A stretch of DNA of 63,587 nucleotides from positions 50,716,414 through 50,780,000 of the forward strand of contig NW_027266265.1 in the NCBI RefSeq assembly GCF_022045235.1, in the 5' to 3' direction. The position numbers were made by a program, and so were the translations under genes. The notes under the pieces are model-generated. The model was given only the letters and a program-made list of their open reading frames with translations. It did not search any database and was not told the DNA's origin. Shown in pieces: positions 12,321 to 58,207 of this stretch. This DNA is from Haliotis cracherodii (taxonomy: Eukaryota). The first letter of the stretch is position 1. Each line of letters starts with the position of its first letter.

Positions 12321-14259
12321 GTACTTTTATACACAACAGTTAACTGTGCAGGCGCTTTGTTAGTACTCAAATAATACTTCTGCGTGGTTATTTTTCTGTA
12401 TGTTTTTATTCCATGTACAACTGCTGATGAGTATCGCAGACATCTTGTCTTTGAAAATCAATAAATTTGCTTTTTTTTCACAAATTAAAAACATTTCAAA
12501 CATGGTAGGGGTCGCGTGTTTGCAAATTCATTTTTTTACCCCATCTTCATTGAACCTATATATGTTTACACAAACTTATCCAGCTACAGATTACTTTTTA
12601 CAACTGTTGCAGGAATGAGGGGTGGTTAAATAGACAGTTCTTCAATTTTCAATTACATTAAAACAAACACAATTTTATTTCCCTAATTACGTATACACAG
12701 TAACAATGTGCCAGTTTCGCATTTATCAACGCCAAGACCAAGACTGAAATTATCACCCGGCGGTGAAGCATAGTCCCTCTGTGATAGTTTTTATCTGCGT
12801 GTCCTTGTGTCAATTTCAACAACGACTTCATTTTATCACCTGAATACAGGTTTGCTCTCAGTTAATCTATCAGTACAACATCCTGAAATGGCTGACAAAT
12901 ACCTGTGAATCCTATATACATAAAACGCATAATTAAAAATACCCGACGACCTTTACAACCTACAACGGCAATAAAAAGACAGTAGAAGGACGTCATCACC
13001 TTGCCGCAGTCCTACCACCCGTGTAGAACACGTGCTGCAAATCCGTCGACATGTCGGGGAGGGAAGGTGGGGACTTTATTGCTTCTTAAGCAGGTCCGTG
13101 ACACTGGCCCTGTGACACAGGTTGTTGTGTAGTTGAGAACGCGAATATTAATTCAGGGAATTTAACACAAATCCTTTTCCACCGTGTGAACTGTTCCGGG
13201 GTTTGTTTACCTCGCAGGTTTATGTGACTTTGTGGTAACAGCTTGATAGGCGGTTGCCAATAAGTCAAGTGGCCATGATAGGATAAATAATTCTGAAAAT
13301 TAGAAATTTACTGCGTAGTCTACTTGACGTATAAATTATTCAAATACCGCAGTGTTTGCCATAGCGACGACATGTTGTGTTTAAATCATGCAATACTAAT
13401 AGAGCGTGGAGGGCATTTGCAGTGAGCAAACACCAGTGCCGGTGGTACTCAATATCATGAATATCTCTGTAGCAACAAGATTACAAGCTGTAGAAAGAAT
13501 GGTTTGTGAAATGAAAAAAATAGCAAAGAAATACTATTTTAAGAATCATGATTAATTTAAAGCTTCAATGTAAAATCTTTTTGCAGTATTAAAATGTAAA
13601 ATTTCAGAAATATAATTGCAAATAATGACAGGATGCAATGTAACATCATTCTGCGGTATTCAGACATATATATTTTCAGAATTGTGAATGAAACGTATGA
13701 TTCCTCTTTCATACTCAGACAAGAAAATACAACATACGATTAAAAAATGGCTATTTGAATGGGAACAAATAGCTGTGCTTAAATTATTTCCCAGGTGTAT
13801 GGCAGAGTCGGATATACTGAATCGTGACTATAACGTAACCAATGTTTTACTGATAATATGTTTTAATATATCCAACAGACGCCAAACATCCCAAACTGTG
13901 AAACAATTTATTTTATGCTGAGGTGAATAACGAATTTTGGACATAATGAACCGGTTTAAAGGGCATCTGGAATTTGCATTATATGTTCAAATGAACTCAT
14001 TTGTTATTTCAAATGACGCTGAAAGTCTTGAAACCAACGAACTACCAACCTCGATGTATTAACTCTGTTTCCGCCATAAAAAACGCCCCAACAGCCACAA
14101 GAAAGGATGAAGGCCAAACGATACCATTGATTTGGAAGAGTGAAAGAAAAACCAGAAACAAGCTCCACTGAATCAGAAAAAGACCGCATGTTCATGAATT
14201 TGAATATCTTCAAACATTCTCAGACAAAACTCATTTTCCCTAAATGTTGCACAATATTT

Positions 14260-15435
14260 CAATTTTCAGGAAGAACCAACAGTTTCGTTCTCCTAAATGT
14301 TAACCATTTCATCCAAGTTGTTCAATTATAGGAATGTGTTGCAGAACGTGGACAACTACCGACCTGTTATTCATAAAATCACAGGCAACTTCTCTTTTGT
14401 TAACAACAGCAACCTTCAGCAGTTGTTCAATAATGGCGTGAATATCGTGAACAGCCTGCTGCCATTTGTTATCAGAAGTTTAAGATCATTATACATGCTG
14501 TCACAGCGTATGCCAGGACATGGTTCACAGGAGAAGACGAATCTGTTGAATGTCTTATGTGTGATGTGGTTAAGTCAATGTGTGATGTAGTCATGTATAA
14601 AATGTCAAGCTGAAAACGAGAAAACAGAATTGGAATAAACCGATTCTGCCCAGCCAGTTGTCCAAAGTCTTACTACGCAGCATGTGAGAAGGCCTCAAAA
14701 TACATAAACCGGTACATGTAAGCATCACCAAATTAATTGGGTGATCAAAGAATTTGGTATAAGTAACATATCAAATAATGACATATTAAGCCAATATGTC
14801 AACTGAGGAAGACGTCAACAAAAATCACGCATCAGTATCATCCACTTTGGGATTTACTCTAAAATCTGAAGACATGTCCATTCCTCTTTTGTACTGGGTT
14901 CCAAAAGCCCCATGCACACCTCAAACCATTATTATTAATATAATCAAGGAAAGACTTTCTTTATATTCACAGAAAGTATCCGAGACAAGTGGAAGTAATA
15001 CCAAGTGAATTCTTAAAAACTTAAAGAAGAGTTTAAGAAAAGAACGAAGTTTAATCATGTTAAAACATTATATACCTCAACTTTCAAAGTACTATGTACA
15101 AAACTATCCCACACGACATACTTAAAGGAAAACTTCCTACCTTAAACCACGAGGCATTTGCCACAAAACGTGGTAACCATAGATATAGTTACCTGTCTAT
15201 CTTCAAAGATTCACGACAATTTGTCAAAAATGAAAGCAAATGTCATCTGAAGTTTCCGATGAAATTCTGGACATCCTCATCTATAACATCCATTTGAAAT
15301 TGGGGGGTCAGCCTTTTAGGCAAGAAGTTAGGATCCCCACGGGCACCAAGTGTGAATTGGAACTGTTTGGATTGTCGAAATTAAAGTTGAACTTAAGCTT
15401 TAGGTATATCGATGTTCTGATATCGTTGAATTATG
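14260..15435 (+). pseudogene. Decayed Penelope-like element reverse transcriptase
   Basis: Ordered fragments across frames: TISSKLFNYRNVLQ, ITGNFSFVNNSNLQQLF, IPLLYWVPK, YKTIPHDILK, LIYNIHLKLGGQPFRQEVRIPTGTKC (cf. GIPMGTNC) and FRYIDVLISLN (cf. FRYIDD). Many stops, frameshifts and deletions. Confidence 0.8.
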
Positions 15436-15523
15436 GTCAAATATCCATGCCCGTGGCTTTCAATGTAAAACGCCTATGTTCTTCCCGATGGTTGCAAACA
15501 TTGAATCATATATGGTGCGAAAG

Positions 15524-20100: not shown

Positions 20101-22577
20101 ATATTTACCGCCCGTGCATGCACGGAAATCCGAAACAAACATTGCACTAGATAGAAAATAGAATACGACATTTGGGGGTTCCATGAACTCAGCAGTAGTT
20201 TATGTAGTACACGTTGTGTGAGAACATAAAGGTAGCTGTCAGTTTGTGAATAAGAATCAGCGAGTTCTACCTTGTAGAGGCGATTCTTTTTCTCGAGCCG
20301 ACAGAGTGTGTTCTCTTCCTGAAAACACATCCCTACTTTCTTAAACTTGAAACAAACCCTACTTGAAGACTTTGACAAAACATTTTTTAGTGGAAAATGT
20401 TTGAAACATAAATCAGAGCTCTTTGATTGTATTTATACTGTGTGAGTCGTCTTTGCGTGATGCATGTGGATTATGACGGTAGTTGATGCATGGTACAAGG
20501 TTTTTTACTGTTTTATGAGGCCCTAAACGGGTATTTAAAAAATCATTGCATGTTTTGAAAACATGCTGACGGGGATTACAAGAAATCTAGAACCCTGAAC
20601 AAGGATATATATGTTTATCTGTTTCTTAGTTTTTCTCATCAAAAGTTTATCTAATTACTTAAACATTAACACCGTTAAAGGTTACTACCTAACACAACAT
20701 TATACATAATACTTTCTGAGGATTATACAAATATTTGAAAACATTTCATTGTTAATTTCACACCATTCTGTCATGTGTTCCCGTGGCCGAGGTGAGACAT
20801 GTTTTCTCACAAAATTTGAAATAATTCACCTGTGTTAAAATAAATAATAATTTTAAACAACTCTGCATTAATTGAAGCGTGGTTGAAGACAATACAGACG
20901 TGAATAATTGACAAACAGCTACCCATCCGTGAAAAATAATGGTTGCTTTAAACATTAAAGTGACGTCAGAGACAGGTTTTTTAAAGTCCTGAAGTACAGT
21001 GTAAATGGCAGGTTTTTTCCAACCGCGACGGAGTCAGAACTATCGAGGATGAACCGCTCCTTGTTACAGGAAGTGGTGACACATGCTCCCAGGCCACCTG
21101 TCACGAGGTCACCGCCGAATCTTGGAGGTCCCGAAGGTCGTTCAAGGGAATGTCCACCTGGCTGGCTACTGGTCAGCGTTCCCCTGCACGAGAGATCTCC
21201 CCACTCCATCTCGCGGCTCCATCCATCGCGCTGGCTGATCTGTGACAAACAGGGGTAACAATCGGCCTTTTCTACTTCTCTGTCGACCTCCACTGTTTGT
21301 GATAGGAAATGAGTCTGTCGTTCTCTCAGTTCTGTATTGGCGTAAGATTTGGCGGCGAATTGCTCTCTCTAATTTCTTAATCTCTTTAAAGAAACACAAG
21401 TTTTGAAATTCCAACGCATGTAAATCCCGTGTACACAACACCTGTTTAAGGCGTTCAAGGCGCCCGTCTGAGCAGACGACAGAACGCAGCTTTCGCTTGC
21501 TCGCACCAAACAAACGCTTGGTTTCAAATTCTTTGGACGGGCCACGCAAATGATAGAATCAAGCATCTCTAACAGGAAGATTCCGACGGATTTCAACAAG
21601 TTAGCATCTCGCTTGCATAATTTGGTCAAGCGTCGGCGCGAACCTCGTGACAGTTTGTCGCTGAACCCACGAGATGTTGTGACGATTGGTGGTAACACTT
21701 AGGTACTACAATGGCTTCGTCCTCAACATCAAAGAGATGCTCGGGTTTATTCGAGTGCCAATATGTTGAATCACCTTAGATCTGGCTGGGCATACGAATG
21801 CTCCTCGTGCCAACAGCGTTAGATTTCGTGAATGAGTGGGTGAATGAATGGGCTTTGTGACGTAATTTGTATTAGTGTGTGAGTTTCTGTTTGTTTGGCA
21901 CAGCGGACAGCAATACTCCAGCCATATCACGCGGGCTGTGAATAATAGAATCTGCACCAGAGAAACCAGTGGGTGAAAACATGAGCACCGATTCTCGCCA
22001 TTGGGTCGCTCTGACACGCAAGTCGGCCATGCCCCCGGAATTCCCACATGGGTCGACTGTTAAATAAATGAATAAGTTTATGCTTGATTGATAATTTAAG
22101 TGTGTGATTAATTAACTAAGTCTGAGAGGAGTGTGTTACGTTGCTGTCAACAAGTGTAACTAAACTACTCAAAAGAAGGACCACCCGATACGTTCATAAT
22201 ACAAAGGTTAATCTGTTCTTTTGGACGGTATATAACACGATTTCTTCGAGCAATTGAGGCTTGCTCACACAAACATTGGTTGATTGTGGCACAAAGATCC
22301 AAGTTGGCTACGATGGTTTCACAGTGCTAGCGCACTTAGTAGCCATTCTGGACATCTGATCCTCTTTCTTGTAGCCTTTATAACATATATGAACATACTT
22401 AGTCAAGGTCTTCACAATTATTTATTCCATATTTGATGAGAAAACAGGGAAACAGGACACACGTAGTTACTGCCAGTCAGAAATCAAATGGATGCTTCTT
22501 TAGCATTTTTAAATAACCGACCCGAAACTGATGATTAGCATTTTACACAGCAGATACAATAAACAGTCCGTACCCAG

Positions 22578-23222: not shown

Positions 23223-24823
23223 TATTATGTCTTGCAGTTTATATATACATATTTATTATATAAGTGAATATTTTCAAACAGTACATTGGAAGTCCCTGTA
23301 TTATTTTCCTGTTTCTCGACTTTGAGTTTTACAGTTCAAAACCATTTCTGAACAATTTAAAATGTTCAGACATATATTCGAAGTTCATATCTTACACCCC
23401 AGTCGGCAATACCTGTGTTACAGTAAATCTACAAATATCCTTTTTGTCTGAGATACAGGGACGCTCATACGCGCTAAAACAAATTAGAACATAACTTATC
23501 CATGAGCTAGTGCTTGAAGGACAACTAACTCCCATCTCTCGGACAGGTGAGAGACCCGATCGCTGCGCCGTGTTTACATAGGCAACAGGTAGACGCGCGT
23601 TCGCCAGACACACCTGACTCCCGCCCTCATAACGGCCCTTACACCTGTGCGGACCTTGAGTGTAGTTATTAAATGTGTGGTGTTGGGGCCGTGTCACGGA
23701 AATGACAGTTTTATGTAAATGACGTGTCTTGTTTTCCAATTCAACACATAATGGGTTTGATTGACATTGCAATGTGGGCATTTGTTAGCCGCCATGCGTA
23801 TTACATCCCAGAGAATTTAACGTGCGTGTGATTTGAAATAATATTTCAGTCAAGTCAACGTAGATCATGTAGCATTCATGACTGTATGTTCATATATGGT
23901 GAATGAAACAACTTGTCAACAAAACTAAATGTAATCTACAGTTAATCCGTTAATCCGCGGGATTTTCGGGAAAACATTGTTACGGTGTAATGTTCTTTAT
24001 TGATATATGTAGTGGCGGTGCCACCTGTAGGGTACGACATGCTTACACTTGTCTCGAATACCCGGTGTCTCGAATACCCAGTGTCATCACTTATTTTCAG
24101 TGATCCATTCATATAATTTTCACCGCTATTTTGCCTTGACTTTTTTATATTCAGATTGATCTTCGATAAAGGGACGCTTCCGGACTATTTTGGTTTCTTT
24201 GTAGAGGCGATTCATTTAAATGGTTATATCACGTATGTCTTTCTTAGACGTTTGAAATGTTGGTGAAATCCACGAGCACGGGTACAGAAACGACAAGGAT
24301 CATAATAGGGCGAGTCTGGGATTCGAACCTGTGCCCTGCGCATCCAGGCCAAACTCGACACAAAGAGTTGTCCAGACGTAGACCACTAAACAACATTAAT
24401 TGTTACAATGGGCTTAAATAAAAACGAAAAAAACCTTTCCATACACTGCGAGTTATAAAACCGTAGACCACTAGAAACAGCATACTGTTACGATTCAATG
24501 CAAAGATCTAATGAATATTTCAATTAACTTCTTATAATATATAATGCGAATTCCAGTGACCTTCAAAACGGTTGGTGCCTATGGTATTTCCAATCCCAAT
24601 GTTGCGAGAAGCAAAAAAAATAAGAAAATCAAAATGGATACGTCAGAAGTATATTTTTACATTTCATTAAAAAACTAAACATAAACATCGTTATGATTAT
24701 AGCTGAATCGAAATATCAAATTGTCATTCGTACAAGAAGTCCTATAAATTTACACGCTGAACACAGTATAGCGAAAACAGACTAGCTTACCCCATTCGTC
24801 GCTATGGGATTATGCTTGAAATA

Positions 24824-26619: not shown

Positions 26620-26861
26620 AACGTCGCTTTCAAGACAATTTCACTTATATAACTGTGTGTGTGTTTGTATGAGTCCGGACTAATGCTGGTTTTATCGTTT
26701 TTTAGCCCACTGAGTAACACGGATAACCCGATCAGACTCAGAGTGTCATTGTCGGGCAGGGTAACAACAAATATCATCTTTTAACGTCGCTATAACACGG
26801 TCGGGGATCGAACCACCGATATTCCGCTCTCAGGGCAGACGTTTAACCCACTACACCACAG
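26620..26861 (-). mobile_element. Older diverged SINE family B relative, interrupted in its tRNA head
   Basis: Reverse complement has ggttcgatccccgaccgtgttatagcgacgttaaaagatgatatttgttgttaccctg; its first bases continue at 27238-27244. Confidence 0.7.
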
Positions 26862-27224
26862 GTGGTGAGGTGAGGTGAAATGGGGTTTAGCGTCGCGTCC
26901 AAGATTATTGTACTTATATAGCGACGTGCATGCACGTGTGTGCGTGGTGTGTGTGGCTGCTTGTACTAGTCCGGACTGATGCCGATTTATAGTGCAGGCT
27001 CACTGAGATACTATGCCGCAGTTAAACATGGATACCCCACTCAAACACAGTATACTGACTCCGAGTCGACCAGTCCTTGTTTTAGCCCCTTAATGCTGAG
27101 CGCCAGACAGGGTAACAAGAAGTACCATCTTTTAACGTCTTTTTGTATGACGCGGCCGGGGATCGAACCCCGGACCTTCCGCTCTCCGGGCGGACGCTCT
27201 ACCACTAGACCACGGAGGCGGTCT
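26862..27224 (-). mobile_element. SINE family B, full length with 13-bp TSD
   Basis: Reverse complement of the 8113 and 32020 copies; TSD cactacaccacag at 26849-26861 and 27225-27237. Confidence 0.92.
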
Positions 27225-29705: not shown

Positions 29706-32019
29706 TTACTTCTGAGTAGCTTATAATCACTAAGCAGCTGTGGATATAAACACGGATAGTCACGTCCTCATTCACACTTACAACTTAATTTTCCGATAGA
29801 AACAAACTGTAGCAATAAATATCAATATTTGTAATTTACAGTTAAAGGAAATTGCACAACGAACAACATCGAAAGCTTCCAAACAGTTTCAATGTTAGTA
29901 CTCCAAATGCAAATCTCGCGCTACGAACGTGACGTGAACGCGCGAGCTCAAGTGATATTGTGGCTTTTAGCATGGTTCACATTTCGCGGGCCATCGTGGA
30001 TCCCTACCGATTTCCCCACAATAGACAAATAATGGACCGGCAAACAGACCATCAAGAAAGTGTGTTTGAATTGCGCATCCCAGTCAATACAACAGGTCGC
30101 AAGCGTCGTGGACACCACAAAGGCAAGAGGACGCGGGTGATTGGGGCAACATTCCATTTACGTTGCCACTATTTCGTTAATGTTACCGGTAAACCTCTGG
30201 CATTGTCACAGCTAGAACAATGACGGGCTCAAACCATCTCCCTGCATCACCCCTGTCTAACACGTCCGTATCGCGGACATCAAAACACTTACCTGTCTCC
30301 CTTCTAGAACAAAACACCTGATCAAGGAGATGAAGAACATTTCTGAAATTATTGTTTATTTGATGCTGGTGGATGATATTTATTTCAGGATTAATGTCTA
30401 TTTGAACCGCCTTATTTAATTTGTGAGAACCTCTCGAATATGTCCGATTCTTTGCCTGGCTTTGTTGATTTCTTTTTTGGCCTCCCTATTGTGCTTGAAA
30501 TTTGTTTTGGCAAAAAGCAGGTAAAATTGAACGCTGCAGGTGAAAGATGAAGAGACACCTGTGCGGTTTTGTATGGAAGACTGTTTGGGACACGAGGCTG
30601 TGGAACAACCACCTGCCTTTGCCAGACATCTATCTACCCATGCATTGGGCGCTTTGCTTGCTCGACATGTGTAATTTAATTTGTACATTGAGGACAGCTA
30701 TCATTTTCCACTTATAGTTCTTTCTAGGAGCTAATAACAGATTAGTTAAATAACGACCAAGCTTTCGCGTCTAATGCATCTAACGCTATACTTGGTCAGC
30801 TTCGGCTGGGCGCGCTACAATCAATCACATAGCAAATGGCTACGGGCTATAGTTAGTTTTGTCATTTTCAGCGCGATCGTAATGAAACACTTGATACAAT
30901 ATAAGGATTAAAAGGACCTTTGAGTGATAGTTTTATTATTTATTTGTTGGGGAAAATCTTTGTGTAAGGCTGATGTTAGTTGTGTGAAATAATAGACATG
31001 CTCTTTGTCAAGTAGGTTTTAAAATGTTAATGTTGAGTAAACACATGTTGCTTATTGAACATATTTTTAAAGTTTTAGTGTGAACAAGTTGTTATTGTTT
31101 AATCGTTATTTTCAGCGTCTGCATTATTTTATTGTGCCAATGCAGCAATGAACAAAGAGAAGTTATAGATGTACTAAATGAAATATCATTGAAATGTCAG
31201 TTTGAAACTTTGCAGCAAAATCACGAATGTTTAGCCTTTATACAATTGTTTAATTCATTCACAGTTGTGTGAAGCTCATTTCTTGTGTCATCCACAGTGA
31301 TATCCGTGGAATATTGCTAAAAGCGGCGTAAAACCATTCTCATTCACAGATGGGGAATCATATTTTGAAAATAGTATAGATATTCAAAATATTCTAAAAT
31401 GTGTGAATGTTTCTGTAGAATATGTGCCAAACTCTTGGGGTCCATATTGTATGTGAATACATTCTTTCATAACATGCATTTACCTGCATGTAAGCAGTGA
31501 AAACATTTGACAAATATGTCAAGCTTTTTATATTATATTGTGAATTCCATTATAGTTTATTCAGCTAATATTTAATTCAAACCACTTTGTATTGTGGTGC
31601 GTCAAAGGTGGAATTTGTTCAGGTGCGCTTTTCTTCGAGATGATTGCAAGATCAATACACACACGTAGGTATACATTTGTTACCATGGAATTCAACATAT
31701 CTTTTTAAAATTATGTCACTAAGTTTCAGTGTTATTGATTGCAAATCAGGTAAGCAGCGCCGTAACAGTGCCGAGTGTGCACAAGTCATAATATTTCAAC
31801 AATATCACAGCGCATATTCTTTTGTAGCCCGTAAAATGTTTTTTCATTCCTAAATAAATATTCGAATATTATGCATCGTGTTTTTTATTTGTGAAATATC
31901 AATTAAGACATTAGAAATCACATGAGAACGGTTTTTGTGACAAGATGTGAGAAAACCAGACAACTCAGGAATTTCTCCGAATATTAATGCCTGTTTCATT
32001 GTTATGTTCAGATAAACAG

Positions 32020-32349
32020 GGACCGCCTCCGTGGTCTAGTGGTAGAGCGTCCGCCCGGAGAGCGGAAGGTCCGGGCTTCGATCCCCGGCCGCGTCATACC
32101 AAAAGACGTTAAAAGATGGTACTTGTTGTTACTCTGTCTGGCGCTCGGTATTAAGGGGCTAAAACAAGGACTGGTCGGCTCGGAGTCAGTATACTGTGTT
32201 TGAGTGGGGTATCCATGTTAAACTGCGGCATGGTATCTCAGTGATCTAGCACTATAAATCGGCATCAGTCCGGACTAGTACAAGCAGCCAAAAGCAGTCG
32301 CTATATAAATGCAATAATGAAATGACGTTAAACCCCATTTCACCTCACC
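32020..32349 (+). mobile_element. SINE family B with 12-bp TSD
   Basis: Full head and body; TSD tcagataaacag at 32008-32019 and 32350-32361. Confidence 0.92.
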
Positions 32350-33594
32350 TCAGATAAACAGTATTAACATCCTTGTTTCGAACCTTAATAAATTGGATTT
32401 TAGAGGACAACACGTATTAAATGAAATACACGTCTCATTAGTCGGTAATGTGTGAATCCTGACAACTTTGTCTACTGAACATGACTAAACTTACGATCCA
32501 TGTGGAGCCAAGCTCTATGATCTGCGTAACCAATTCCTACGTATTTGGTACACACATAAAACCCCACTGATACCATAACGCCGGTAAGGTCTTACGGTTT
32601 CCTTTTAACACGCACCAACAATCAGAAGGCGTACATAACCCTCTTTGATAGACGTCTAATTGTTACAATTCACTATGAATTCCCTCACAATGCATATATT
32701 CTTTTGGACTAATATTTTGGTATTTTAATTTCAAAAATAGTTTTAGATAATACCAACAAATATTATACTTATACTTATGCTAACCACCCTAGAGTAGTAA
32801 ATACGTATTTCTTAAAATTCCTCGCACTGCTTTGAGTCGTATTTTCATCTGTCCATAACCAATCTGTATGTGACAGATGATTTATGTCCTAATAACTGAT
32901 CCCCGTTTTGCACTAGGACAAATAAAACGGAAACATCCCCTACTGACGTACTCACAGGACTCATGTCACTATTCTTCACTTGTCTATTTCCCACCTGTTT
33001 GATTGAAAGGTGATCAAAGATCAATGGGTTTGCGACCTCCCGCACCCCAGGAAACCCCGAGCTACCTGTGCCAGCCTTCTGGTATGAGGGGGTTAGACAG
33101 GGGTTGCCCAGGGGAGCAAGGAGTCCTCCCAGAGCTATGAGACAGGTAGATCGCGATTACTACACATACCGCAAGGTATTAGGGCTGCGTTTGGTCGAAT
33201 GACACGACGTGTATGTTTCGGTGCTACTACTGTCGTCTCGTCATTTAACATTCTGTTTGCTCGAAATGATATATATATTGTTTCAGCATCCATTTAAGAT
33301 CATGATAACGGCGATCTACAGTCTGTCACCCGCATCGTTGACGATTCATTTACTAGTTTCCAAAATATGTAACTGAGTGAGTGAGTTAAAATTTAACGTC
33401 AAATCGGCATTATTTCAGTCATACAGCGATGAACAAATATTTATGTAACTAAAAAAAACAAATATATTTTTCTATTTCAAATTTCGTCATAAAATATAGT
33501 TTGAAAAGTTATTCGATTGTGCTAAAGGAATTCAATTTCACTCATGCATCTACAAGAAAAAATGATAACACGAGCCTCGGGGCCTTCCTAAAAT

Positions 33595-34251: not shown

Positions 34252-37200
34252 CTTCCATGTGTAGGGTTTAGTCTTAATCAAAGGACAGTCAAACATAGAA
34301 AGCCAGCTGTTGAAATGGCAACTGACGGTTACAGTTTGATTGTTTGATTGTTTGTACTACTGGTACACTGATTTGAAAATTTGACTGAAGGAACACGACA
34401 ATGCTGGATGTAATTGACGATACTGTATATGTTTCATCTCAAGGACAATATCCACGGAAATGTTTTCTTACTTGCAATATAGATTGATATAATCTCAATA
34501 AAGTTCAAATTACTTAAGAATCATTTAGAAAGTAGTTTTACACAGCTTCATATTTTCATATGTTTCAGATAATTCTGTTCGTCTGTTTTTTTTAAAAAGG
34601 ATTTTAAACTTTGATTTTGTTCCTCCCGATTAAAACATGGCTATGTGTATTTAAATACAGTACTAGAAAACAGTAATACAGTACTAGCAGAGTATTATGT
34701 AAAGACGGTACAAGATAACATTATGAGAAATTGCATCATTTATTTTAAATATGTACCTTTGTTTATTGTGCATGGTCTAATTCATTTAAAAAAATATATG
34801 AAGAAAATATACGGTAGTTGCAGTCAAATCTTATATCATTGTTTATTCCCACAACGTAAGTGTATTTACGATATGTTAACACATATTCCGAACAAAAATA
34901 CAAATCACTTACTTATTAACAAAGCAGAACAGATAAATGCCTCCACATACAGACAGGGTCAACAAAACGCACCGCTGGCATTCACGATTGCCAGATACAA
35001 GATGATTGACAGGTCGGCATTTCACCTCAGGTGAGTCGATCAATAGAAACAGGTGCAACGTTCAGAGCAGGTGTTATCTGGGTCTGACAGAGTGGGCAAT
35101 AACGATATAGGGATCTATGGACCTCGGAACACTGTGTTTGTTGCGACAGTATGTGAGACGTGTTTGGAAACGGTGCAGCTGTATTTCACCACCAGGTATT
35201 ATTTCAACACGGCACACTGCTGGTGGGTGAAGTGGGCGATGGTACTAACTAAACCGAACTATCAATACTACAACGAAATTTTTTTTTTTATTTATATTTC
35301 CTATTGAAAAAAGTCAATTATGCGTGATTTCAGCTTTTTTGTAGTGATTAGAAACATAAAAATGTTAAATAGTTATTTTACGTTTATTACATTAAAAATA
35401 TAATTTTTAATTTTGAAAAATATGATTATAAAGTTTACTACCTTATCAAATCAAACTACATAAATATTTGACGAAACTTTCATTTGGGATCACTTTTTCA
35501 TGCCAAGTTCCCTCGGGACTTTAAACGTTGTCAAACAGCTCCGATAACTGCAGTGTGCAGATTTTATCCAGCTGTTGTACATATAAGCTCTAATTATTGA
35601 CATGTCTTTTAAAAATCTGCTGAAAGTCTATTCCATGCCCCGCCGAGAACACTGACAGACATTATTGTACTCAATATCATTCCACAGCAGGCGTAGTGGT
35701 TGGGTTTGACTTTTGGTGTTAACCAAAACAGCTATTTGGCGAAACATTCATAAAACAAGAACGGATATTAGTCCACCACACAGCATTAGGCAGCATTTCC
35801 AATTTGTTAAACACCATCAACCAAGGCAATGACTTTGCAACGCTTATCAACTTAATCAGATCTGTTATACTGTCAAAATGACTATCACTAGTGCTGTATT
35901 CTGCAATAGTCGTGAAGTCATTTCAACATAACAAGAACTTCTCAGAGATATAATCAAGTACCTTTGCCACAAATATATACTAGCATACAGACGAATTGCA
36001 ACAAAGAAAGTTATTAAATGGCGATATGCGCCTCTATATGTGTCTTGTGTCTTGAGGTAATTTCATTTGAAATCAAGATCTATATAAAAATGACATAAAT
36101 CTATTTTTTTACAAGTCTCATTTATTAGAATCATTGAACTATAATTTGTATTAGGATAGAAGTCATATTTATCATGATTTTTGCATTCATTGCACGTTCA
36201 GCTCTAGAACAATGGAGCCTTGAAAACGCGCCACAGTTGATATATACATTATAGTTTATAAAGATACCGCCAGTGAATAACAATCACACGATCCGAACAC
36301 GACTTAGTTATATTAATTCATACAAACTATTTTCAATAATAAAAAATGCTTTCTCTTGTGGTAATTATGAGCATGGGAGAATATTTTGCCCCCAACGCTT
36401 GGCAGGAATGCCTAAATGTGAATGCAGTATTTTAAAGCTGGCTTACTTTATTTAGTTTATATCATGGCGTAAGTCACAGCTTAGAGTAACACATATTGTA
36501 GACGTTTCTTACATGGTGATTGACCAGCGTGTACAATCAGGACGTTGCTGTAATTCGAACACACGATACGATTTTTGTATCTCGATGTCAGCGCCTTGAA
36601 CAAAATGTCACCTGTCACCCCTAGAAATTATGCATAAATATGGTATAAGGTTCCCAGGTACACCCGTCATGGTATCGAAACATCGCTGACTAAACCCCTC
36701 ACTACCTCGCGTCACTGTGTCCACTTGACAACTGATAACTATACACCAAACACCTTATCCCTTCTTGATAGCGAGATCCACGCCAGTAATTAATCATTAA
36801 GATATTTTCCTATGTTTTTTTGCGGATATCGGATCGGAAATGCACGAGCATGTCCTCGAAAGCTGCGCGGCTGGTAGTTGGCATTGCGCCTGCGCGTTGA
36901 CAGGTGATGTAAAGCGCGCGCAAGTTGGCAGCAGACGACACCGTGTTTACCGCGCGCAGGTGCGAAACTGGCAGATGGACAACTTGATAAGGCTGTGCAG
37001 GTGAAAAGAAAACAGTTCGGATCTAGCAACCTGTCCTAGGAAACGCTTTAAGAGGATTTGTGAGGCGAGATGTTCAGCTGATGTAAGCCAAAATCGGCGA
37101 GTGGGGGGCTTCATGTTGAGACATTGAGACATCAACTTGTTACTGTAGCGTTTGAACGCTTCCAAACACAAATCTACGATTGAGAAAACTGTCAAATTAT

Positions 37201-40200
37201 ACGGAAGGATTAACATATGCGCCTATTGAAGTATGGATTTCTGAACAAAGAATTTATTCATTCTGCTGTTTATTTAGATCACTAAAGGAAAACAACAAAT
37301 CAGTTCTCACTTAAGATAAAAAATTGCAATTTAAGATATTCAAAAGTTAATATGAATGCAAATATTACGATTCTCCGCCGATCTCAAAACCTGGCACGTC
37401 ATCTGGCATCTAAAGCTCTTTATTTCTGTTTTGGGCGTCAAAATACTGTTTACAGAAGTTAACAGTCCTTCAGCAGCAAATGACAGACACACAGACAGAT
37501 ATTGTATTTCGTCTCATTGCTGTACATCATAGAAACTTGCATTAAACAGGAGTTAATATATGAAAATAATAATACAGCGCCCTCATATAAAGTTATGAGA
37601 TACGATATAAAATTAAATTTTTCCGCCGCGAAAACAATCTTTAGAATTCCTGTACCGTGTTGGCTTGTACGTATGAACATTATTTGTCTATAAAGGTTCC
37701 TACCAGCTTATCAGATATTTCTTTTCCATACGGACATCTTGTATTTTGCTAGAAATAGCTTTCGTATTTAAACCAGTGGTGATGTTAAATATATGCTGCA
37801 TGTTTAAGTCGGTTTGTTTTGCCGAAAAGGGTGAGTTACACTTGCTATATATAAACAGTTGATGCACAACCGCCAACTGCTGGGCCTATGAAAGGTATAG
37901 GGGTGAGGATGGCTGGATGTGGGCTTTTAACCATATCAGTGCAACGGTCTTTGAATTAACAAATTTCGAAATGAGACAGTGATGAATAGACAAAGAATCA
38001 AAGTTATAAGAAAACAGAATAAAGAATTAGAAATAGAGTTCTAATCTGCCACATACACTGTAGTGTAAATCTGTAGCCACATACACCCTTGTAACACCAT
38101 GGAGTCAAATTCATCGGTGCACATAGTCGATGTTCCACTCATTTAATGTATACGTTACAACAAGCCTATCGTTATTTGATATGAAGCGGTGATGTTGTAA
38201 ACTGAGCGTATCTCAAATACAGCCCAGTGCTCTCATAACAGGATCGCTCTACAGATCCTCTATAACCAACAGATCAAAGGTTACTCGTCTACTCATGAAT
38301 AATGACGTCATTAATTAGAGGCGTAATGAAGTGATTACGTCATCAAACGATTATTAATTGACAGCAGGCAGCGGGGGCGATCAGACGCGGCTGAAATTAT
38401 GTCGATTTCACGGATGACGTGAGATGTTGGAAGCTATCACGTGACTTATTATGTCAATTGCCAACCTGTTGTTTTTGTCAGTGGGTCGCGAGGAAAACGG
38501 TATTCGATAAGCTTCTTAGTCGCCCATATCATTCGCCGACTCATTAGTTGAATATTTACAAGAAATTAGTTTGACAAATTATGGATATTGACAAATGAGG
38601 TTAATTTCACGCTATGTCGACTCCGTGAAAAAGTGAGAATTTGTCTGATTAAATTACACAATCTTCGTGCTGAATCTCATTTGTTGTGGTAAACTTTCAT
38701 TCGTGCGCTTACTCAAAAATGTCGTTTCTTGGAAACTAATTATGACACGTAATTAAACATTAATTATATACTTTACCCCTATATGTCACATAAATCATAT
38801 TTACGTGTTCTTTGCAATGTCAATAAGCAACACGGATGAATAAATTCCATTTATTTTAAAAATATTATGAGAAGAGTTTTCAAACATTCTTTGGTTCAAA
38901 TCAGTATACAAATTACTAGTAAATATTTGTAAAATGTTAATATGTTAACCTGACCATCAAGAATATTTTCCTCGAAAAATATCAATTTCAACATGATTGC
39001 GACCGAGCTACACAAGCACGTGTTTATACAATGTCTTATAACTGTGTTGCTAGGTAACAACAGATTATCCTCAAACACGAAATTGTACGTTCCTCCTAAA
39101 AATGATTTGCTTGTTTCCTTTTCTTCAATGAAAGGTATCGTAGTTTATTTTTAGACAGTTCAAATTGGGCACGCGTCCCGAACTTTGAATGGTGTATTAT
39201 AATTCTGGCTGTTCACCCGCCATCTAGCCCTTAATGGGACTCATGTCCCCGTTGTATGGCACGGGGGATGAGGGACAATAACCCCTTTCCCCACCCCCCA
39301 GTAACCCCGGCACGCGACACCAACCAGCAGGGTATCCCTGAACGCCAGACGCCCGGTGGATATAACTTTATGAGGGGTAGTTCACAAAAGCCAGGAAATC
39401 CACGGTTAAAGTGCACGTATAGAATTTAGTACGGGGGATGTTCCAATATTTGTTAAGGCCTGTTGTTATTCCATTGTCATATGTTGTTTGAAGTTTCGTT
39501 GGTGATAGAGTCAGAGCTAGTGTTGACATTTTTTCAGTTATATGGTTTAGTTTGCCGGTAAATGTACTTTTGTTATGATAATCCACATATCTATATCATA
39601 ATGCTATTTATATTGGATGTTAGTTCACTTTTTATCACATTTTCATTTTAACAAAATAATAAAATTATCAAAATCAGTTAATTTGTATAAATATCTATTG
39701 GATAGTGATATGTTTTCTTGTCGTATAGTTGATTTCAAGTCGCATTTGTTTCGTTCGATAAATGTAAACTCAATATTCTGAAAATAATGAATTCTAACGA
39801 CAATGTATATGTCATATGTTTCCGTCTATTTAAACATAAATTAACTCTACTTCTAGAACAGTATTGCAACTTTTATAATATATTTGTTTATACAAATAAA
39901 ACGACAAAATCATAATATTCCGGCATTTAATGTCAATAGCCAAGTTGCTGACTCGGTTGTCCGGTTGCCAAGCGACAAGGGCGGACGCGGGGCTGCTGGT
40001 TTAACACCACCTTCAGCTTAGTTAAACTAGCCATAACGATTAATTTATGTACAAATAATAGCAGGTCGTATAGGGAGGGTTTCACCTGTCTCACAAGGGA
40101 GGGGCTGGCTTTGAGGGTAGCGACTCACCTGAGTGTACACCTGCCCGTGTGCCGCGCTAATGTCGCACTGTACAAGTCTGTCATGTGCCGGGCACCGTCA

Positions 40201-40934
40201 CACTCGTTCAACACTCGATTCTAACCCGATACCCGACACGGAACGCGCGCGCGGGGAACAGGTGAAATGGGGAAAACTAACGCCGGGGGAGTGACGGGGG
40301 GAGAAAATAACACAGTACAGATTCATAGCTCCGAGACATTTGAATTTTATTTTGTTTTGGTTTCTGAGGACTCACAATACCGGACAAATGTTAAAGCAAG
40401 GCTGTGAGGTTTGTATGGTGCGGGCATCTGTGGTAAAAGTACAAGTATTTAGGAGATTGAGAGAACGCTAAGCTCCTCATTCTGATCAAAGGTAGCACGT
40501 GAGGTGAGAGTTTTTGGAAATTTGTAATAAACTCGCGTCATACTCTGTAATTAAACCTGTTATGTATGCTGCAATTATTATAAAATATTCGTCTTGACAA
40601 TACCGGGTTCCGTCATTGTAGGAGTGTTTGTGCTTTTCCACCTGCTGGGGTCGGTGGTTGTATCATGAAGTTGTGATTGGTTGTTGTTAAATACATCTGT
40701 GTTTTTTCTAAATCATGCCTGTCATCATTAATGTTTATTTTAGAAATGTTTAATCAAATTTTAAGTGGAATGCTGAATACACTTCTTTCATTGGCTTTGG
40801 AGCCTTGTACTATAACAACGAATCAAAGGACCTACCATATTGTCAAAAGTGTCATATTGTTCCCGAAAATACTGAAAAAGAATAATTTCACTTTTCCTAA
40901 AACATTAAATTATTCACCGACTGGTTCCTAATAT

Positions 40935-41445: not shown

Positions 41446-41489
41446 TTAATAAAATGACGATCCATTGATGCACAACAATATATTATGGT

Positions 41490-45015: not shown

Positions 45016-46672
45016 TTATTGAACCATCGGCCCACAACAGCCGTCTTCGTGTTTCAGCAGCAGAGACATGCGTGAGAATGTCTTGGAGCAGGATCTGCAG
45101 CTGTATTTCTTGACATCGGAGTGGGTCTGGAGATGTGCTCTGAGGTTGGATCGGTCCGCGAACGCCCGGCCACAGTGGGGGCAGGAGAAAGGCTTCTCCC
45201 CCGTGTGGGTCCTGATGTGACCCTGGAGCAGCCAGGGCCGGGAGAAGGCCTTGCCGCACAGCTTACACTTGCAGGGGAGGGTGTGGGTCCGGATGTGCAT
45301 CTTCAGAGCACCAAGCGACACATACGTTTTGTCACAGTATTTACAGTTAAATTCTTTCTTAATCTGCGAAGCACAGTGGAATTGTTTGTGTTTGGAAAGT
45401 CCGCTAAAAGTGGAGTAGCTTTTCTTACACGCATCACATTGGTATCTCACAGGCTCGTTCTCCTTGCTTTTCTTCTTGTCCGACAGGGATAAGTCAATGT
45501 CTGAGGGCACACTTTGGGCTTTTAACACAGGATAATTCAGCACATTGTCAAATGGAGCTTTAGAAAGCCGGGCACCCAAATCCATACTCTCCATTACCCG
45601 GTCGTCAAAAACCAATTTTCCCGTGTCGGCGGCAGGTGGGGAAAAATTGAGGGGGTAGCGTAGTCCGTGGAGGTACGGCGGAGGGGGAAGCAGGTGGTGG
45701 GTGCCTTTGAACGCTGACGGGACGTCCGGGTAGTGCCGATAGGGGAAAGGGGACTCTGCCAGCGGTCGGACAACGGGGGGCGCAGGAAGGCCATTCATAA
45801 ACCGCAAGTTGAATGGCAGTAATGACGGGTGGTGGTGCAGACCCCCGAACACCGGACTGTGCCATGGGAATGCTTCTGGAAGTCGAGGGGGCTCCGGGGG
45901 TGAACTGCTTGGGGTACCGATGGGTGAGGTACTGCTGACGCTACGGTCACTGTCTCCGAACCCTGGGGAGAGGCTTGACCCACGCAGGGGCTTGTCGAAG
46001 ATCAACGGTGGGAGAGGTCGGGGATGGATGGGACTGATCTTCCCTCGTGGGCTGCAGTAGATATCTGGGCGCTTCAGACGCAATGCAATCTCTTCCATTT
46101 CTGAAAATCATGATAAAAATATTTTAAATTCTTTGAACAAAATTCACTTGTCTGCTTTATATGTAAGTTCATAAGTGAATTAAATAAAATAAATATTACC
46201 AATACTTTTGAATAAAACTTCTTTGAATTTTCCATTTTATTAGTTTAATAAAAGGGGAGACTTAATGTAACGTTATACACAGGAGGTTAATGATGTCATA
46301 AGAAATATCGTGTACTTAATTAAAATGAAGAAAGAAAACAAAACCTAAGTCACTATAGTTATAGTAAACATAAAAAAATGTATGCCTACCTTTTTCTCTG
46401 TGAAATGCTCTGTCTTGAATGACGACCTTCTCACATGGCGACACCTGACGTGGGGGTCTGTCATTGCGAGGCGTCTTTTTGGTTAGGTCCATACCCGTCT
46501 CCTCTGTCACACACACCATCCCGGGGGTTGGGGAGGCGAGCACTGGTGTGGGGGAGGCCAGGACTGGAGTAGGAGCAGCCAGGATAGGGGTAGGGTACAC
46601 CAGCTCCGGGGTAGCAGCGACATATATATCCCCCGCTCGTTCCCTTTTCTTGATGAGGAATGCACGAGGCAT
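45016..46672 (-). CDS. snail: Snail-family zinc-finger transcriptional repressor, 2 exons (46672-46390; 46100-45016), 455 aa
   Basis: Exon 1 starts with the SNAG motif MPRAFLIKK. Donor AAAG|GTAGGC at 46389 and acceptor TTTTCAG|AA at 46101 give a phase-1 junction (G+AA=Glu) that joins in frame to ORF 46098-45016. The C-terminus has five fingers: [84 protein letters not shown] and a final C2HC finger [21 protein letters not shown]. These are diagnostic of Snail/Slug rather than Scratch. Paralog identity (snail1 vs snail2) not determined. Confidence 0.97.
46101..46389 (-). other. snail intron, 289 bp, phase 1
   Basis: GT...AG ends on the minus strand, AT-rich interior, and removal restores a continuous reading frame from SNAG to the zinc fingers. 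Confidence 0.92.
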
Positions 46673-46799: not shown

Positions 46800-47030
46800 A
46801 ATGCAGTGTTCAACACAACTCTTAACTCGGAACGGAACCACACCGTATAAATACCTTGTCATAGGCTGCACGCTGTCTTTGTAAATCTCTTCCCTCGCTA
46901 TCACCAATCACGGCGAGGGGACAGTCAGATGGCGCTCTCAGCCAATCAGATGCCTCGGCGCTCTATAAGCCCCGCCCCTATCCCGCGTGTGCCGCGTGCG
47001 CTTGTTGAGACCGCCAACAGGTGTAGGTAT
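46800..47030 (-). promoter_or_regulatory. snail proximal promoter (TATA-like, CCAAT, GC box, E-box)
   Basis: Minus-strand TATTTATA at 46846-46853, about 175 bp upstream of the ATG. CCAATCA at ~46904 and ~46942, CCCGCCCC at ~46971, CAGGTG at 47018-47023; locally CpG-rich. TSS not determinable from sequence. Confidence 0.65.
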
Positions 47031-52388: not shown

Positions 52389-55300
52389 TTAAACAGTTAT
52401 AGTCTAAGTGCGGCTATATTTATCGTCACAGCGTTACGTCAAATGTTGTAAAATAATAGTACGTACGTTATATTTCATAATAAATTATCAAGTTAGCCAA
52501 GACCATCATTGAGAATAGACAAGGCCTAGTCATACGTCTGAACAGTAAATACCCAACTGTTTTAATCATTATTAAACACAAGAAAAATCTATTTGAAAAA
52601 AATAGTTTCAACCTGTAGGTGGTCAGTCTCCCAGTCTCCCTGACCCGTGAAAAAAATTTAAAAGGAGTCTGGAATGATTTGGCCCCAGCTCCTGAAATTA
52701 AGGATTGTTCTGAGCTGCATTTGAAGTTTATTTTTGTGTTTTGTCTATATATATATTTTTAAATAACATAACTTTATTTCAGGGATAAATTGTCAGTCTA
52801 ACCTGTAGGCTACCCAACTACGTAATCGGATACACCAGCATATTTCTCACGTGATTTTTTCGTGGAAATATGGTATCTAGGTAGACATTTGAAAACTATT
52901 TTACGCAAAGAAAAAACAAAGTAGACAAGACAGAAGTTAGAATAGTTCCTATCCCGCCCATGCGTTCAAAGGAGTGTTAAAACTAGTTCGATGTCAAACA
53001 ACTCAATATGCACGGGTAAAAGGAAATAGATATACTTTATGTTTTAGAAAACGTAGATGTCTTCCTTGGATTTACAAATAATCGTGAATATGAATTAAGA
53101 AAATCAATAATGATATTGATAATTAAAAGTATCAGTTTCAACTTACATAAATCGAGCATAGGCCTTGCATAAACAGTGTTCTCTAAATATTTATCATTGT
53201 CCGGATTATGCGGTGTCCAGAATAAAGGGGTCCATTGTGCACCGCATACGTTGTAATTGATTGTGTACACACATAGACAATACAGATCTATCTAAGAAAT
53301 ACAAAATATACAAGTCGATTGACAATAGTCATTATAGAAACAGTCAATATCTATAGGCTTGACATCTGGAACACAATTCAAAGAACAAACTATATAGAAA
53401 ATCAATTGATAATAATATGCGTAGCCATCGTTGCCATTGCTTGGTTCAGTAAGTGGATACCGCTGCTTTGTTATGACCCCTCGCAACAGGATGTGAACGT
53501 CATGACGTGTTTGTTTCTTTGTGAATATGGCACTATATCATGGAATCTCCATCATACCTCGCGGTGTCACTTTTACACTTCAATCGCTGGCCAGGGGCAT
53601 TTATTCTAAAAAATGTCCACTTTTAACTTTTCCAACATAAATGATAAATCTTTTATGTTTCATTTTGGCATGTTTGGAGATCTTAACATCCCAAAGTCAC
53701 AAACTGCGCATATTTCCTAAAAGAAACGGAGCATTGTTTCGGATGGGCGGATGATACGATGGATGCGACACAGAGACAAATACTTTAAACCATACCAGAT
53801 CTCTTGTAGGCGGAATTCGAAACCGTTATATTGCAGAACATTCCGTAAGAGCCTTTTCAAGAAATTAGAACCTGTCCCCAATGATATAGCCGTATGTGCC
53901 CTCTGCAGCATGTGTTACTGCGAATTAGAGATAAAGCGATAGATAATCCGATAATCCCTGCGTTAAATACCACACATAACCCACACGCCTGTTTACGCGT
54001 ATATAGACCATGGATGAAGAACGTTTTATGATGTGGACCTGCTCCGGTTGTCTCAAGTGGGGGTCATGCTGCTAGCCCTACAAGGAAGAAGCGATTACCC
54101 CGTCCTATCATGCGACTATTAAGAGATTTACCTGTGGAACAGGTAAACAATTTAGACAATAGGGGTCTGTTCGGTCCGTCCCCCCGCCCCCTCCTGACAA
54201 TACGACCTGTGTGTTTCTATATGAGGAAAAAACCAACAGTGAAGACGTTATGATGTAGGCGAAGTCAGTGCTGTCTTTGAAGTCACCCAGGAAGAACTTG
54301 GCGAATTTGCGGTTAATTCGATAATCTCTTTACCTGCGCGAAGTTTGGGGATCCCACGAGCATCAACGCAGTTTTGACATTTTCGGACTAAAAATATCTA
54401 TAACTTCAAACCTATATTCGCATAGTGTGCATTCCAATGAATCCATTGAATACCTGATTTTATACTGCTTCCAATTTCTTGTAATTTCTGATTGGCATGG
54501 TGGTGGCATAATATATTGTTAAAACAAAATGCCAAACATGATCCGACATCGTGAGTACGTTTCATTTTGTATCAACATCATAATACTTTTTTGCAGCATT
54601 TAAGTACGATTTCATATTTACAATATTAGTTTCGTGAAATTTTACGATTTCAATATTTCATTAAGTTTCATCATTACCATGCTAAATTGCATGATCTTTG
54701 CGATATTATCATATACATGTGGTTGATGAAAACAACGATATTAATACTGTTACGCATTTACAATTCATGTTTTTTATTTAACATATTAATACACATATTA
54801 TTCTATAAAATCATTAAAAATGATATTCCATCTTCTACAGAGGGTAATTATTTAATATGTTTTATACGTTAAGAATATTTTGAGTTATGCTGTTCATCCT
54901 TTTCAAAAGATTGTCAATAAAAATCATCTAAAAAAATAATAATAATATAATTGTATAATAATACGTCAGCTGTCACATGGTACTCAGTAATTAACCTACA
55001 TGGAAGGCAATCCCATATCTTTCAATTAACGCTGAACCATCTACATATCAAATTACCACAGCGGCATACAATTATACACTCTTTTTCTTAGAACATAATT
55101 ACAGGTATCCATATTCAATTATCACTTTTGCATGCGACGGACGACGCGTAATATTACTGTTAGACTGGTTACTTGTTTACAGGGGCAATCAAAGTTAACG
55201 ACAATCAACCAACTTCACGTGCGCGCCTAGCGGTACATTATGAAATGTATTGTGTTTTATTGCAAGCAATATGTCTAATTAACATTTTAATGCGAATTTG

Positions 55301-55496
55301 GGCTTTCTTTGTGATTCATGGTCACATGCTATTTATATAGTCGGAATCGTTCATAGGACTTTTAGTAGAGATTTATTATGATTGTGATTTTGCTTTTATT
55401 GTGTGTTATAGATAATTGCGTATGATGTTTACATTAGTAGAATGATTGTCTGCATTGTTTTCTTCTTCGTGCAAATTTTATATCTAGTTATTCTAA

Positions 55497-55729
55497 AATG
55501 CCGGGCAAAATAAAGTTTACAGTTAAAAATTGGATTTAACCAACAAATTATAAACGTTACCAAAATGTCACTCTACCGACACAGTCGCCGAAACACAGCA
55601 TACATAAGGTCCAAAACACAACTATGATACCCGTATCAAATACATCACCATCGAATAACAATTATTTGTTTGTTTCAATTTTAGCCACCATCAAACATGG
55701 GTGTATGTTTTCTTTTACCCGGTAGTTTA
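55497..55729 (+). mobile_element. MITE family M1
   Basis: tgccgggcaaaataaagtttac ... cagtcgccgaaacac ... gggtgtatgttttcttttacccggtagt. Confidence 0.8.
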
Positions 55730-58207
55730 TTTGCTAATGCGCAATGTTTTGGAAATCGTTTTGGGTATCAAATATGCATTATTTCCATCCAATAACGTCA
55801 GTTGAGGCTATGTTAGTTGAGGTTTATGTCATCATTTCTCTTTACAAGTGATTAGGGTGGGCAAGGCATCCAGTATGACCAACGCCACCAGTCTGCTACT
55901 ATTCATTAACAGAGGTGATATATGGTTGAAGACATACGAAGCTAATAATGAGTACTGAGCGCATGAAGACTACACCGCTGATTATTATTATTTTTTTTAA
56001 AAGCTCTAAAAAACTACCATGGCGTCGCCTGCATTTGTTCGAATATACACAATGCAATGTATTGTAAAATTATTAATTAGACCGTGTAAAGACAAAATTG
56101 TCAAACGATGTAATTACTATGTTTTGGATATGTTCATTAAAGTTGATAGATTGTTGTTTACTGAAATGATTCCAAACATGATTTTGGTAATTTTACATTA
56201 AAATCCATAAACTTACATTTATAGAAATGTCCGATAGAGTATATTTGATAATGATTGATTTCATACTTAATATCTAAATACGTTGCCCCCACCCCCCACC
56301 CCCCCACCCCCCGCCCCCAGTTTATTTTTATCCTGGTGAGGTTGGATGGACCAAGGAGACATATAAATACAGACTCCCTGGAAGGACGGATGAGAAAGAA
56401 ACTATGTTACGCAATTCTTAATCTTTTGTTGTAGAGCAATAAATTTCACGCCGATTTCATTGTGATTACATTACCGCAATGAACAACTGCTTGTTTATTT
56501 CACCAATTACAAGGCTAATGTATTCAAAAAGTCAATAGAAAATCACGCCCGGGGGTCATATGTGTGTCCCCCACCCCCGGGAAAACATCAACATGCTAAG
56601 CACCTCAGCAGGGGAACGCACAGACGGTACACATGGTAAAGCCATTCGACCCTGACCAGTAAGCATGCCTTAGTGCCCCGTGGTCAAGCCGTGGTCAGAT
56701 AATCTAATGTACTTACAAGACGGACAGTTGGTATATCATTACCCGTCCGAACAACCCTTTGAACCTGCACCGGCACGTGCTAGCACAAACGCCCAGGGGT
56801 CACGTGGACCTAATTTAAATCAGGGATTATTTACATACTCTCTACCTTGGTGTTAAAGAAATCGTACATGGCTGGTGGATCAGTGGCGAATGCTTTACCT
56901 GTTCCTGGAGATGGTGATTACATGAGTGAGTTCAGAACCTGCGTTGGGGAAGGTGGTTGGCCTTTATTGCTAGAGCATCTGTTACCTGTATTAATCAGAC
57001 GTCCACAGGTACAGGATTAAGCTGCCACCTATAGGTCGAACACAACACAACAGCAGATTTCTCCCAAACCTTGAATACACTTGGCACAGTTGGATATTAG
57101 ATTATAGTAGACGACGAAGGAGGAGATTAGTTTATCATGGGTCACATATTGTATATAATATAAGATTGACAATATACAAAAGCAGGACCACAAGATTGCA
57201 TTAAATATACGATTTGAACATGAAAAAAATGTAGTNNNNNNNNNNNNNNNNNNNNNNNNNNNNNNNNNNNNNNNNNNNNNNNNNNNNNNNNNNNNNNNNN
57301 NNNNNNNNNNNNNNNNNNNNNNNNNNNNNNNNNNNNNNNNNNNNNNNNNNNNNNNNNNNNNNNNNNNNNNNNNNNNGTAAGTACGTGTACAATAAGTACT
57401 TGTGACTGAACTTTACGCTGACTTGGTTGATACATGTCATAATATCCTAATTGCGTGGATCGATGTTCATGATGTTCATGATGTAAGTCACTGCATTGTC
57501 TGGTGTGGTAGTAAAGTAAAACACATATTTTTTTACTTCATGAAAACAATGTTGTTCTGAATGTCGAGAATTTGGATGGATAACAGATATTTCGAAATTT
57601 AAGAACTCGGCCAAATCTAATTCATCATTAGTGGTTACTGCTCGTTTCAATTTGTTGATAACGGATTTTATAATGGAATTTCTCTGTTGTTTGTTTCACC
57701 CGGAAGTAATATAATAATGATTTAGAAATTCGCATATTCGCAACGAAAGTAACATTGAAGTGCCGTCAATGGCTGGGTGTCCTTTGGGTCATTTTCTTCA
57801 AATAGATTGCAAAGGCTGACCATAGTCACTGGGATCATTTTGAGGACATACTGAAATACTATGAGCCAATGGCAGCAGCAATCTGATAGCGGTAATGAGG
57901 ATGTAGTGTTAATGGCGAGATGTTCCAGAAAATAGCTTGCCGGAAGTGTCGATCACACGATACTACTATGATGGATTGTGGTTGAAACCTCGATAACGTC
58001 AGTTAATCCGTGATTATTGTTCAATTATTTCCAACCTGACACACGCTATGCATATTAATCAAAGAGTCTCTAGCATGTGAATTTCAGTGTTGTTTATCCT
58101 GGATACGATGACCTTAGATGGTTGACCTCGGTTATCTCCTAACTGACCGTAACACAGGACATTAATGTCATCACTGGCGTTGCTAGGAAACAGTGGACCA
58201 ACAATGT

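Follow-up and report, generated by a model that had tools for sequence, protein, structure and literature searches.

Approximately ten clusters of the word RCAGGT surround snail2, a Snail-family gene of Haliotis cracherodii, within a 63,587-bp stretch of its genome (NW_027266265.1, 50,716,414-50,780,000; hereafter the window) that contains this one intact protein-coding gene. The clusters extend over 50 kb, mostly on the 3′ side of snail2, the outermost lying 40 kb downstream and 10 kb upstream of the gene. They are specific to this locus, they show a preference for a purine 5′ of the CAGGT core, and the gene in their midst encodes a Snail protein bearing a SNAG domain. From this sequence evidence we favour, with moderate confidence, the reading that Snail-family negative feedback acts through several snail2 enhancers, each of which would carry its own repressor sites.

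Clustering of RCAGGT at the snail2 locus

Three backgrounds served for comparison of site densities: 40 random 10-kb stretches, the 100 kb adjoining the window at either end, and 40 kb around 31 other transcription factor (TF) genes. Of these TF loci 20 were taken first and 11 were fetched after the cluster rule (at least 4 RCAGGT in 300 bp) had been fixed. All backgrounds were masked for tandem and dispersed repeats, and the coding exons of the window were masked too. The unique DNA of the window (41,087 bp) contained 40 CAGGTG (9.7 per 10 kb) and 76 RCAGGT (18.5 per 10 kb), compared with 413 (5.2 per 10 kb) and 719 (9.1 per 10 kb) in the 790,432 bp around the 31 TF genes, an overall CAGGTG excess of ~1.9-fold. 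An earlier note on this DNA (hereafter the original prediction) had expected one CAGGTG/CACCTG per ~4 kb. That figure was too sparse, the real background being one per ~1.8-2 kb, and because the genome is denser in the word the overall excess is ~2-fold and not the 3-fold that 4 kb implied.

Clustering was far more pronounced than overall density. Eight clusters were found in the window against four around the 31 TF genes (38-fold, P = 1.5e-8), three in the 280,095 bp of the 11 later loci taken alone (18-fold, P = 8e-6), two in the 40 random stretches (~220 kb after masking) and none in 104,819 bp of flanks, the snail paralogue included. Under a looser rule (at least 3 in 150 bp) there were 10 in the window and 11 in the controls. 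The observed clustering was attained neither by random placement of sites (0/5,000) nor by local dinucleotide shuffles with two tile sizes (0/300), and it thus exceeds chance. CAGGTG ranked 1 of 2,080 hexamers in the window under a second-order Markov model. To allow for the post hoc choice of motif, 6,144 degenerate hexamers were scanned across 30 loci without bias; RCAGGT at snail2 came top (P = 3.3e-9, ~6e-4 after Bonferroni correction), the runner-up reaching 4e-7. With several copies in less than 300 bp of non-repeat DNA and above background, these are homotypic clusters, and the enriched unit is RCAGGT followed by G>A>T, not the strict E2-box.

All nine islands of the original prediction were recovered with 3-6 CAGGT-core sites each, as was a promoter site at 47018, and two further clusters were added (Table 1). 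Of the nine islands, described there as carrying Snail-type E2-boxes, five have at least three CAGGTG; those at 12830 and 32990 have one each, and those at 54035 and 56760 have none. The window as a whole contains 53 CAGGTG, 28 CAGGTA, 31 CAGGTT and 15 CAGGTC. Island sites occur on both strands (28 +, 29 -), in mixed orientations and at variable spacings (9-246 bp). Outside the 11 islands RCAGGT falls to background (7.4 per 10 kb), and 5/15 GC-rich blocks contain no site at all. The islands had also been called GC- and CpG-rich. The former is correct (GC 48% vs 38%), but CpG observed/expected is 0.81 compared with 0.94 in the unique window. As CpG is undepleted throughout the region, the islands do not qualify as CpG islands.

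In genome searches each of the nine originally listed islands matched itself alone, extra matches falling outside the islands; common words are passed over by this search, which leaves some room for low-copy repeats. BLAST masking against ~1.8 Mb of genome masked 0/9 islands, and the claim that they are non-repetitive was borne out in both respects. Comparison of the islands with one another, or with the paralogue flanks, gave no match over islands. A search for co-occurring motifs found CGCGC runs in a few islands only and none common to all. Transposon-derived copies of the motif were considered and rejected, as the islands match neither dispersed repeats nor each other.

Table 1. Islands and gene features in the window (positions from its first base; islands are those of the original prediction unless marked as additional).
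Position	Strand	Feature	Basis or remark
7110..7420		Additional cluster, 4 RCAGGT-type sites	Cluster scan and local shuffles
12830..13260		6 CAGGT sites: 1 CAGGTG, 1 CAGGTA, 3 CAGGTT, 1 CAGGTC	Single copy
20820..21160		Additional cluster, 5 CAGGT sites	Cluster scan
23400..23660		5 sites: 3 CAGGTG, 2 CAGGTA	Single copy
30280..30620		6 sites: 4 CAGGTG, 2 CAGGTA	Single copy
32985..33155		3 sites, all ACAGGT: 1 CAGGTG, 2 CAGGTA	Single copy
35005..35200		5 sites, all on + strand, 3 CAGGTG	Single copy
36600..37040		6 sites, 4 CAGGTG	Single copy
40055..40270		5 sites, 4 CAGGTG	Single copy
45016..46100	-	snail2 coding exon 2, five zinc fingers	Profile, structure and tree comparisons
46390..46672	-	snail2 coding exon 1, SNAG start MPRAFLIKK	Spliced to exon 2, 455 aa
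46846..46853	-	Putative TATA-like box, TATTTATA on gene strand	Read from sequence
47017..47023	+	Single promoter-proximal ACAGGTG (gene strand CACCTG)	351 bp upstream of ATG
53860..54345		6 RCAGGT upstream of gene, 0 CAGGTG; last base 3 A, 1 T, 2 C	Single copy
56755..57040		5 RCAGGT upstream of gene, 0 CAGGTG; last base 3 A, 2 T	Single copy

The gene amid these islands lies on the minus strand in two coding exons. Its 455-aa product is one residue apart from a Haliotis rufescens 'escargot-like' protein and shows the layout of the Snail family, with a SNAG domain at the N terminus and five zinc fingers at the C terminus. The best match among solved structures is human SNAI1 (E = 1e-62), with which the recognition-helix residues of fingers 3-5 are identical. 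In a midpoint-rooted tree of 31 chosen proteins it clusters with the snail2 proteins of Lottia goshimai and Crepidula (support 99/98), and by these comparisons it is the gastropod snail2 orthologue. A second, snail1-like gene lies outside the window, ~84 kb to the left of snail2 and tail to tail with it (G000:C2 ~50,675,012-50,677,318). It has a SNAG exon of its own as well as a single promoter-proximal ACAGGTG, and the tree places it in a separate mollusc clade, apart from snail2. A linked snail pair is known from Lottia (PMC2688512), and abalone resembles it in this respect (PMC2688512, PMC9923484). What those two papers report of the pair concerns phylogeny and expression, whereas the present work concerns cis-regulatory sequence.

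Candidate readers of the clusters and a proposed distributed self-repression

The base at position -1 is a purine in 42/50 sites of CAGGT-defined clusters, compared with 456/816 control sites (P = 4e-5), which agrees with the fly motif label RRCAGGTGB-escargot given in PMC2910651. The core is followed by G in 23 of the 50, by A in 13, by T in 9 and by C in 5. The clustered sites match the Snail specificity RCAGGTG/A, and Snail affinity for CAGGTG and CAGGTA is reported as similar (PMC3909790). More than half of them (27/50) are not CANNTG, two islands lack CAGGTG altogether, and the other E-boxes are not enriched in the window (observed/expected: CAGCTG 11/9.6, CAGATG 18/24.9, CATATG 14/18.1, CATGTG 29/31.1); the pattern therefore suggests that the reader is a zinc-finger protein and not a basic helix-loop-helix (bHLH) dimer. 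Enrichment was likewise absent for Zelda-type CAGGTAG (4 observed, 4.4 expected) and T-box-type AGGTGTG (6 observed, 5.6 expected). It would be in keeping with bHLH activators, dimers of an E-protein with Twist or a proneural partner with which Snail at most competes, that 23/50 clustered sites are full CAGGTG E-boxes and that in limpet ectomesoderm there is probably overlap between twist1 and snail2 (PMC9923484). Yet the sites without a CANNTG half-site, the two islands without CAGGTG and the background level of the other E-boxes are not what an E-box activator would leave, and we consider this explanation very improbable. The competition with bHLH activators that formed one branch of the original prediction is accordingly disfavoured.

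The motif fits Snail, ZEB and Scratch alike, and sequence cannot separate these readers. Scratch too recognises CAGGTG/A, and two scratch genes are present in this genome. The ZEB motif tolerates C at -1, and such sites are rare in the clusters (2/50 vs 17% of controls), which would speak against ZEB. According to PMC10437117, CAGGTG/A is bound by ZEB with a preference for two boxes whose distance may vary, and the spacings within the islands are variable and their orientations mixed. Moreover, similar single clusters occur beside bHLH genes resembling atonal, ATOH8, olig and PTF, which would be plausible targets of a neural repressor. The islands may thus be real snail2 enhancers whose clustered sites are read mainly by ZEB/Zfh1 or Scratch, silencing snail2 where it is unwanted. 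It does not account, however, for the coincidence that an unbiased screen put first the very word bound by the gene's own product, and we regard it as a serious but distinctly less likely explanation.

The clusters might also be non-functional, arising by chance in GC-rich DNA, from decayed low-copy repeats, or as the CAG|GT splice words of an unannotated transcript. The window was picked after the pattern had been noticed, CAGGT is common across the genome, and the words omitted by the genome DNA search leave uniqueness unproven. Nevertheless, the signal withstands all-pattern correction, local shuffles and fresh control loci, and the islands are unlike one another and unlike other places in the genome. 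Sites fall on both strands, and CAGGTA, the donor-like form, shows no significant enrichment by itself (P = 0.07). On balance a non-functional origin appears improbable.

Under the preferred reading of distributed self-repression, the islands would be separate snail2 enhancers. A Snail-family repressor, either Snail2 itself or the linked paralogue, would bind them, probably cooperatively, and damp snail2 transcription. Its SNAG domain would recruit co-repressors, and bound Snail would quench nearby activators at short range; because Snail is a short-range repressor, every enhancer would need its own sites. Enhancers limited in this way could let snail2 be expressed in brief pulses, in one cell group after another. 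In limpet, snail2 is reported to switch on and off in successive cell groups and snail1 to be stable (PMC9923484), which would fit many self-limited snail2 enhancers and a cluster-free paralogue side. Cross-repression by the paralogue is possible; its own flanks are without clusters. The distributed autoregulation originally proposed thus survives in part. The clusters are locus-specific, non-repetitive and made of a Snail-type word, for which autoregulation seems the best-fitting account, but the word itself would suit ZEB or Scratch too.

Snail loci of other animals were drawn from a metagenome scan, which returned 78 loci, 54 of them snail. Non-coding similarity between the window and these 54 consisted of repeat matches only. 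A group of 13 related snail loci is likely cnidarian by similarity, the best named matches (at least 80% query cover) being Nematostella and Exaiptasia Snail. Within this group RCAGGT was kept at 14/20 sites, with 9.6 expected from the flanks, and at 12/16, with 7.5 expected, in comparisons that are not independent. Such retention lends modest support to the Snail-site reading.

Several observations weigh on the other side. The paralogue side contains 0 clusters in 50,942 unique bp, and clusters are therefore not general to snail genes, even in this genome. Weaker Snail sites, ending in T or C, make up 14/50 of those clustered. The control locus of an ATOH8-like gene (named by eye; G000:C12:21,792,801-21,832,800) has four clusters under the looser rule and, at 11.7 CAGGTG per 10 kb, exceeds the 9.7 of the window. 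ZEB explains the clusters about as well, because it binds CAGGTG/A and prefers paired boxes (PMC10437117). In pooled flanks of other animals, compared for those loci with at least 800 unmasked bases (22/32 representative snail loci and 16/17 controls), the RCAGGT excess of 1.5-1.7-fold at the 22 snail loci was nearly equalled at the 16 non-snail zinc-finger loci (1.4-1.5-fold). Conservation of RCAGGT in the likely cnidarian group ranked only 93/2,538 and 53/1,777 among patterns after flank adjustment (top 3-4%). Finally, the support comes from the sequence of one mollusc locus, and both enhancers and binding are predicted.

The circuit has precedents. In Drosophila the distal sna enhancer holds nine clustered Sna sites, removal of which leads to derepression (PMC12402238), and in the native locus negative feedback runs through the proximal enhancer (PMC12135202). 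The two papers disagree on which enhancer represses, one assigning the distal enhancer a part in positive feedback. Fly and abalone are alike in having clustered Snail-type sites inside what are, or in abalone would be, more than one of snail's own enhancers (PMC12402238, PMC12135202). However, the fly work concerned two early enhancers within a few kb, with feedback shown by mutation, whereas abalone has ~ten clusters over 50 kb, seen as sequence only. Since clustering of Snail sites has already been shown for more than one snail enhancer of Drosophila, the novelty of the architecture lies in its occurrence in a mollusc and not in its kind. No cis-regulatory study of any mollusc snail gene was found in the literature searched, which comprised few subscription papers and main texts only.

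Human SNAI1 reportedly binds its own promoter, a finding attributed to Peiro et al. in 2006. Reviews disagree on the outcome, with self-inhibition described in PMC6616578 and up-regulation in PMC4237825. The human gene and abalone snail2 are alike in a single promoter-proximal CAGGTG/CACCTG box and in near-identical fingers; they differ in that human SNAI1 has one promoter box and abalone has distributed clusters as well. Fly and human already provide the circuit; the addition made here is that a spiralian probably has it too, with the scale and map that it would have there.

Developmental enhancers of spiralians have hardly been mapped, and the clusters supply ~ten precise candidates, and with them a single mechanism open to test, in which every enhancer would have its own negative feedback, at a gene that marks the gastropod cells that internalise to form ectomesoderm. 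Whether each enhancer requires its own autoregulation is termed unresolved in PMC12135202, and the question can now be put to a third major branch of animals. The contrast between snail2, rich in clusters, and a paralogue that has none also gives a way into the divergence of the duplicates.

The promoter-proximal box

In a post hoc comparison of snail genes from distant animals, each with at least 360 bp of upstream DNA (a tenth gene, with 185 bp and no site, was dropped), 8/9 had one RCAGGT(G/A), reading CACCTG/TACCTG on the gene strand, at a distance of 50-560 bp upstream from the SNAG start codon. The set includes both abalone genes, the likely cnidarian group and a mite gene. The same arrangement was present in 6/18 bHLH control genes (P = 0.009, or 0.027 after merging related loci). 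Another 18 snail loci, in which no SNAG start could be recognised, were anchored on an internal Met; the antisense site was found in 5/18, which is background level, but with that anchor the count weighs neither way. One scratch gene also has RCAGGT(G/A) in the same orientation upstream of its SNAG start.

A broader proposal, which we put forward as speculative and rather doubtful, is that Snail self-repression through a box of fixed orientation is ancestral in animals, from cnidarian-like animals to mites, molluscs and humans. In gastropod snail2, and not in its paralogue, it would have expanded to ~ten self-limited enhancers giving pulsed expression in multiple tissues.

Other loci and neighbouring sequence

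Clusters of the word were also noticed elsewhere in the genome, beside genes named by eye. Single or paired RCAGGT clusters adjoin bHLH genes of atonal-like, PTF-like, NeuroD-like and olig-like type. Next to an atonal-like gene, 10 kb of unique DNA has 19.6 RCAGGT per 10 kb. The ATOH8-like bHLH gene, with the top CAGGTG density among the controls, is a candidate target of the same repressor. Six CAGGT(G/A) lie within 100 bp at G000:C12 ~15,002,141, in unmethylated-looking DNA upstream of a TET-like gene.

CpG observed/expected is ~0.9 over ~220 kb, from ~90 kb to the left to 135 kb to the right of the window start, and ~0.45 beyond on both sides; by this measure the domain around the snail pair is likely unmethylated. 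In window-extended coordinates, two related intact single-ORF (open reading frame) genes of ~350 aa lie at ~118,640-119,713 and 129,984-131,024, the C-terminal half of each resembling by eye what we take to be an aerolysin-type pore-forming domain, a candidate assignment. A Pfam scan of 20 of the window's 125 ORFs returned Snail and a weak DDE transposase and nothing else; a decayed DDE transposase lies at 10565-11137.

Repeats in the window include a high-copy ~360-bp element, self-matching on either strand and resembling a MITE or SINE (a miniature inverted-repeat or short interspersed element), with copies in opposite orientation at 26755-27230 and 32005-32361. The first copy contains a weak tRNA-like match (27148-27219), and an Rfam scan gave one weak tRNA-like match, within a repeat, and no other RNA. 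Satellites of 55 bp occupy 8840-9321 and 11325-12312, and a 25-bp satellite array of 4.3 kb with extreme strand skew runs from 59042 to 63322. Lastly, at least eight similar, closely spaced homeobox ORFs were found in 30 kb at G000:C23:64,683,494-64,712,647, a tandem homeobox expansion.

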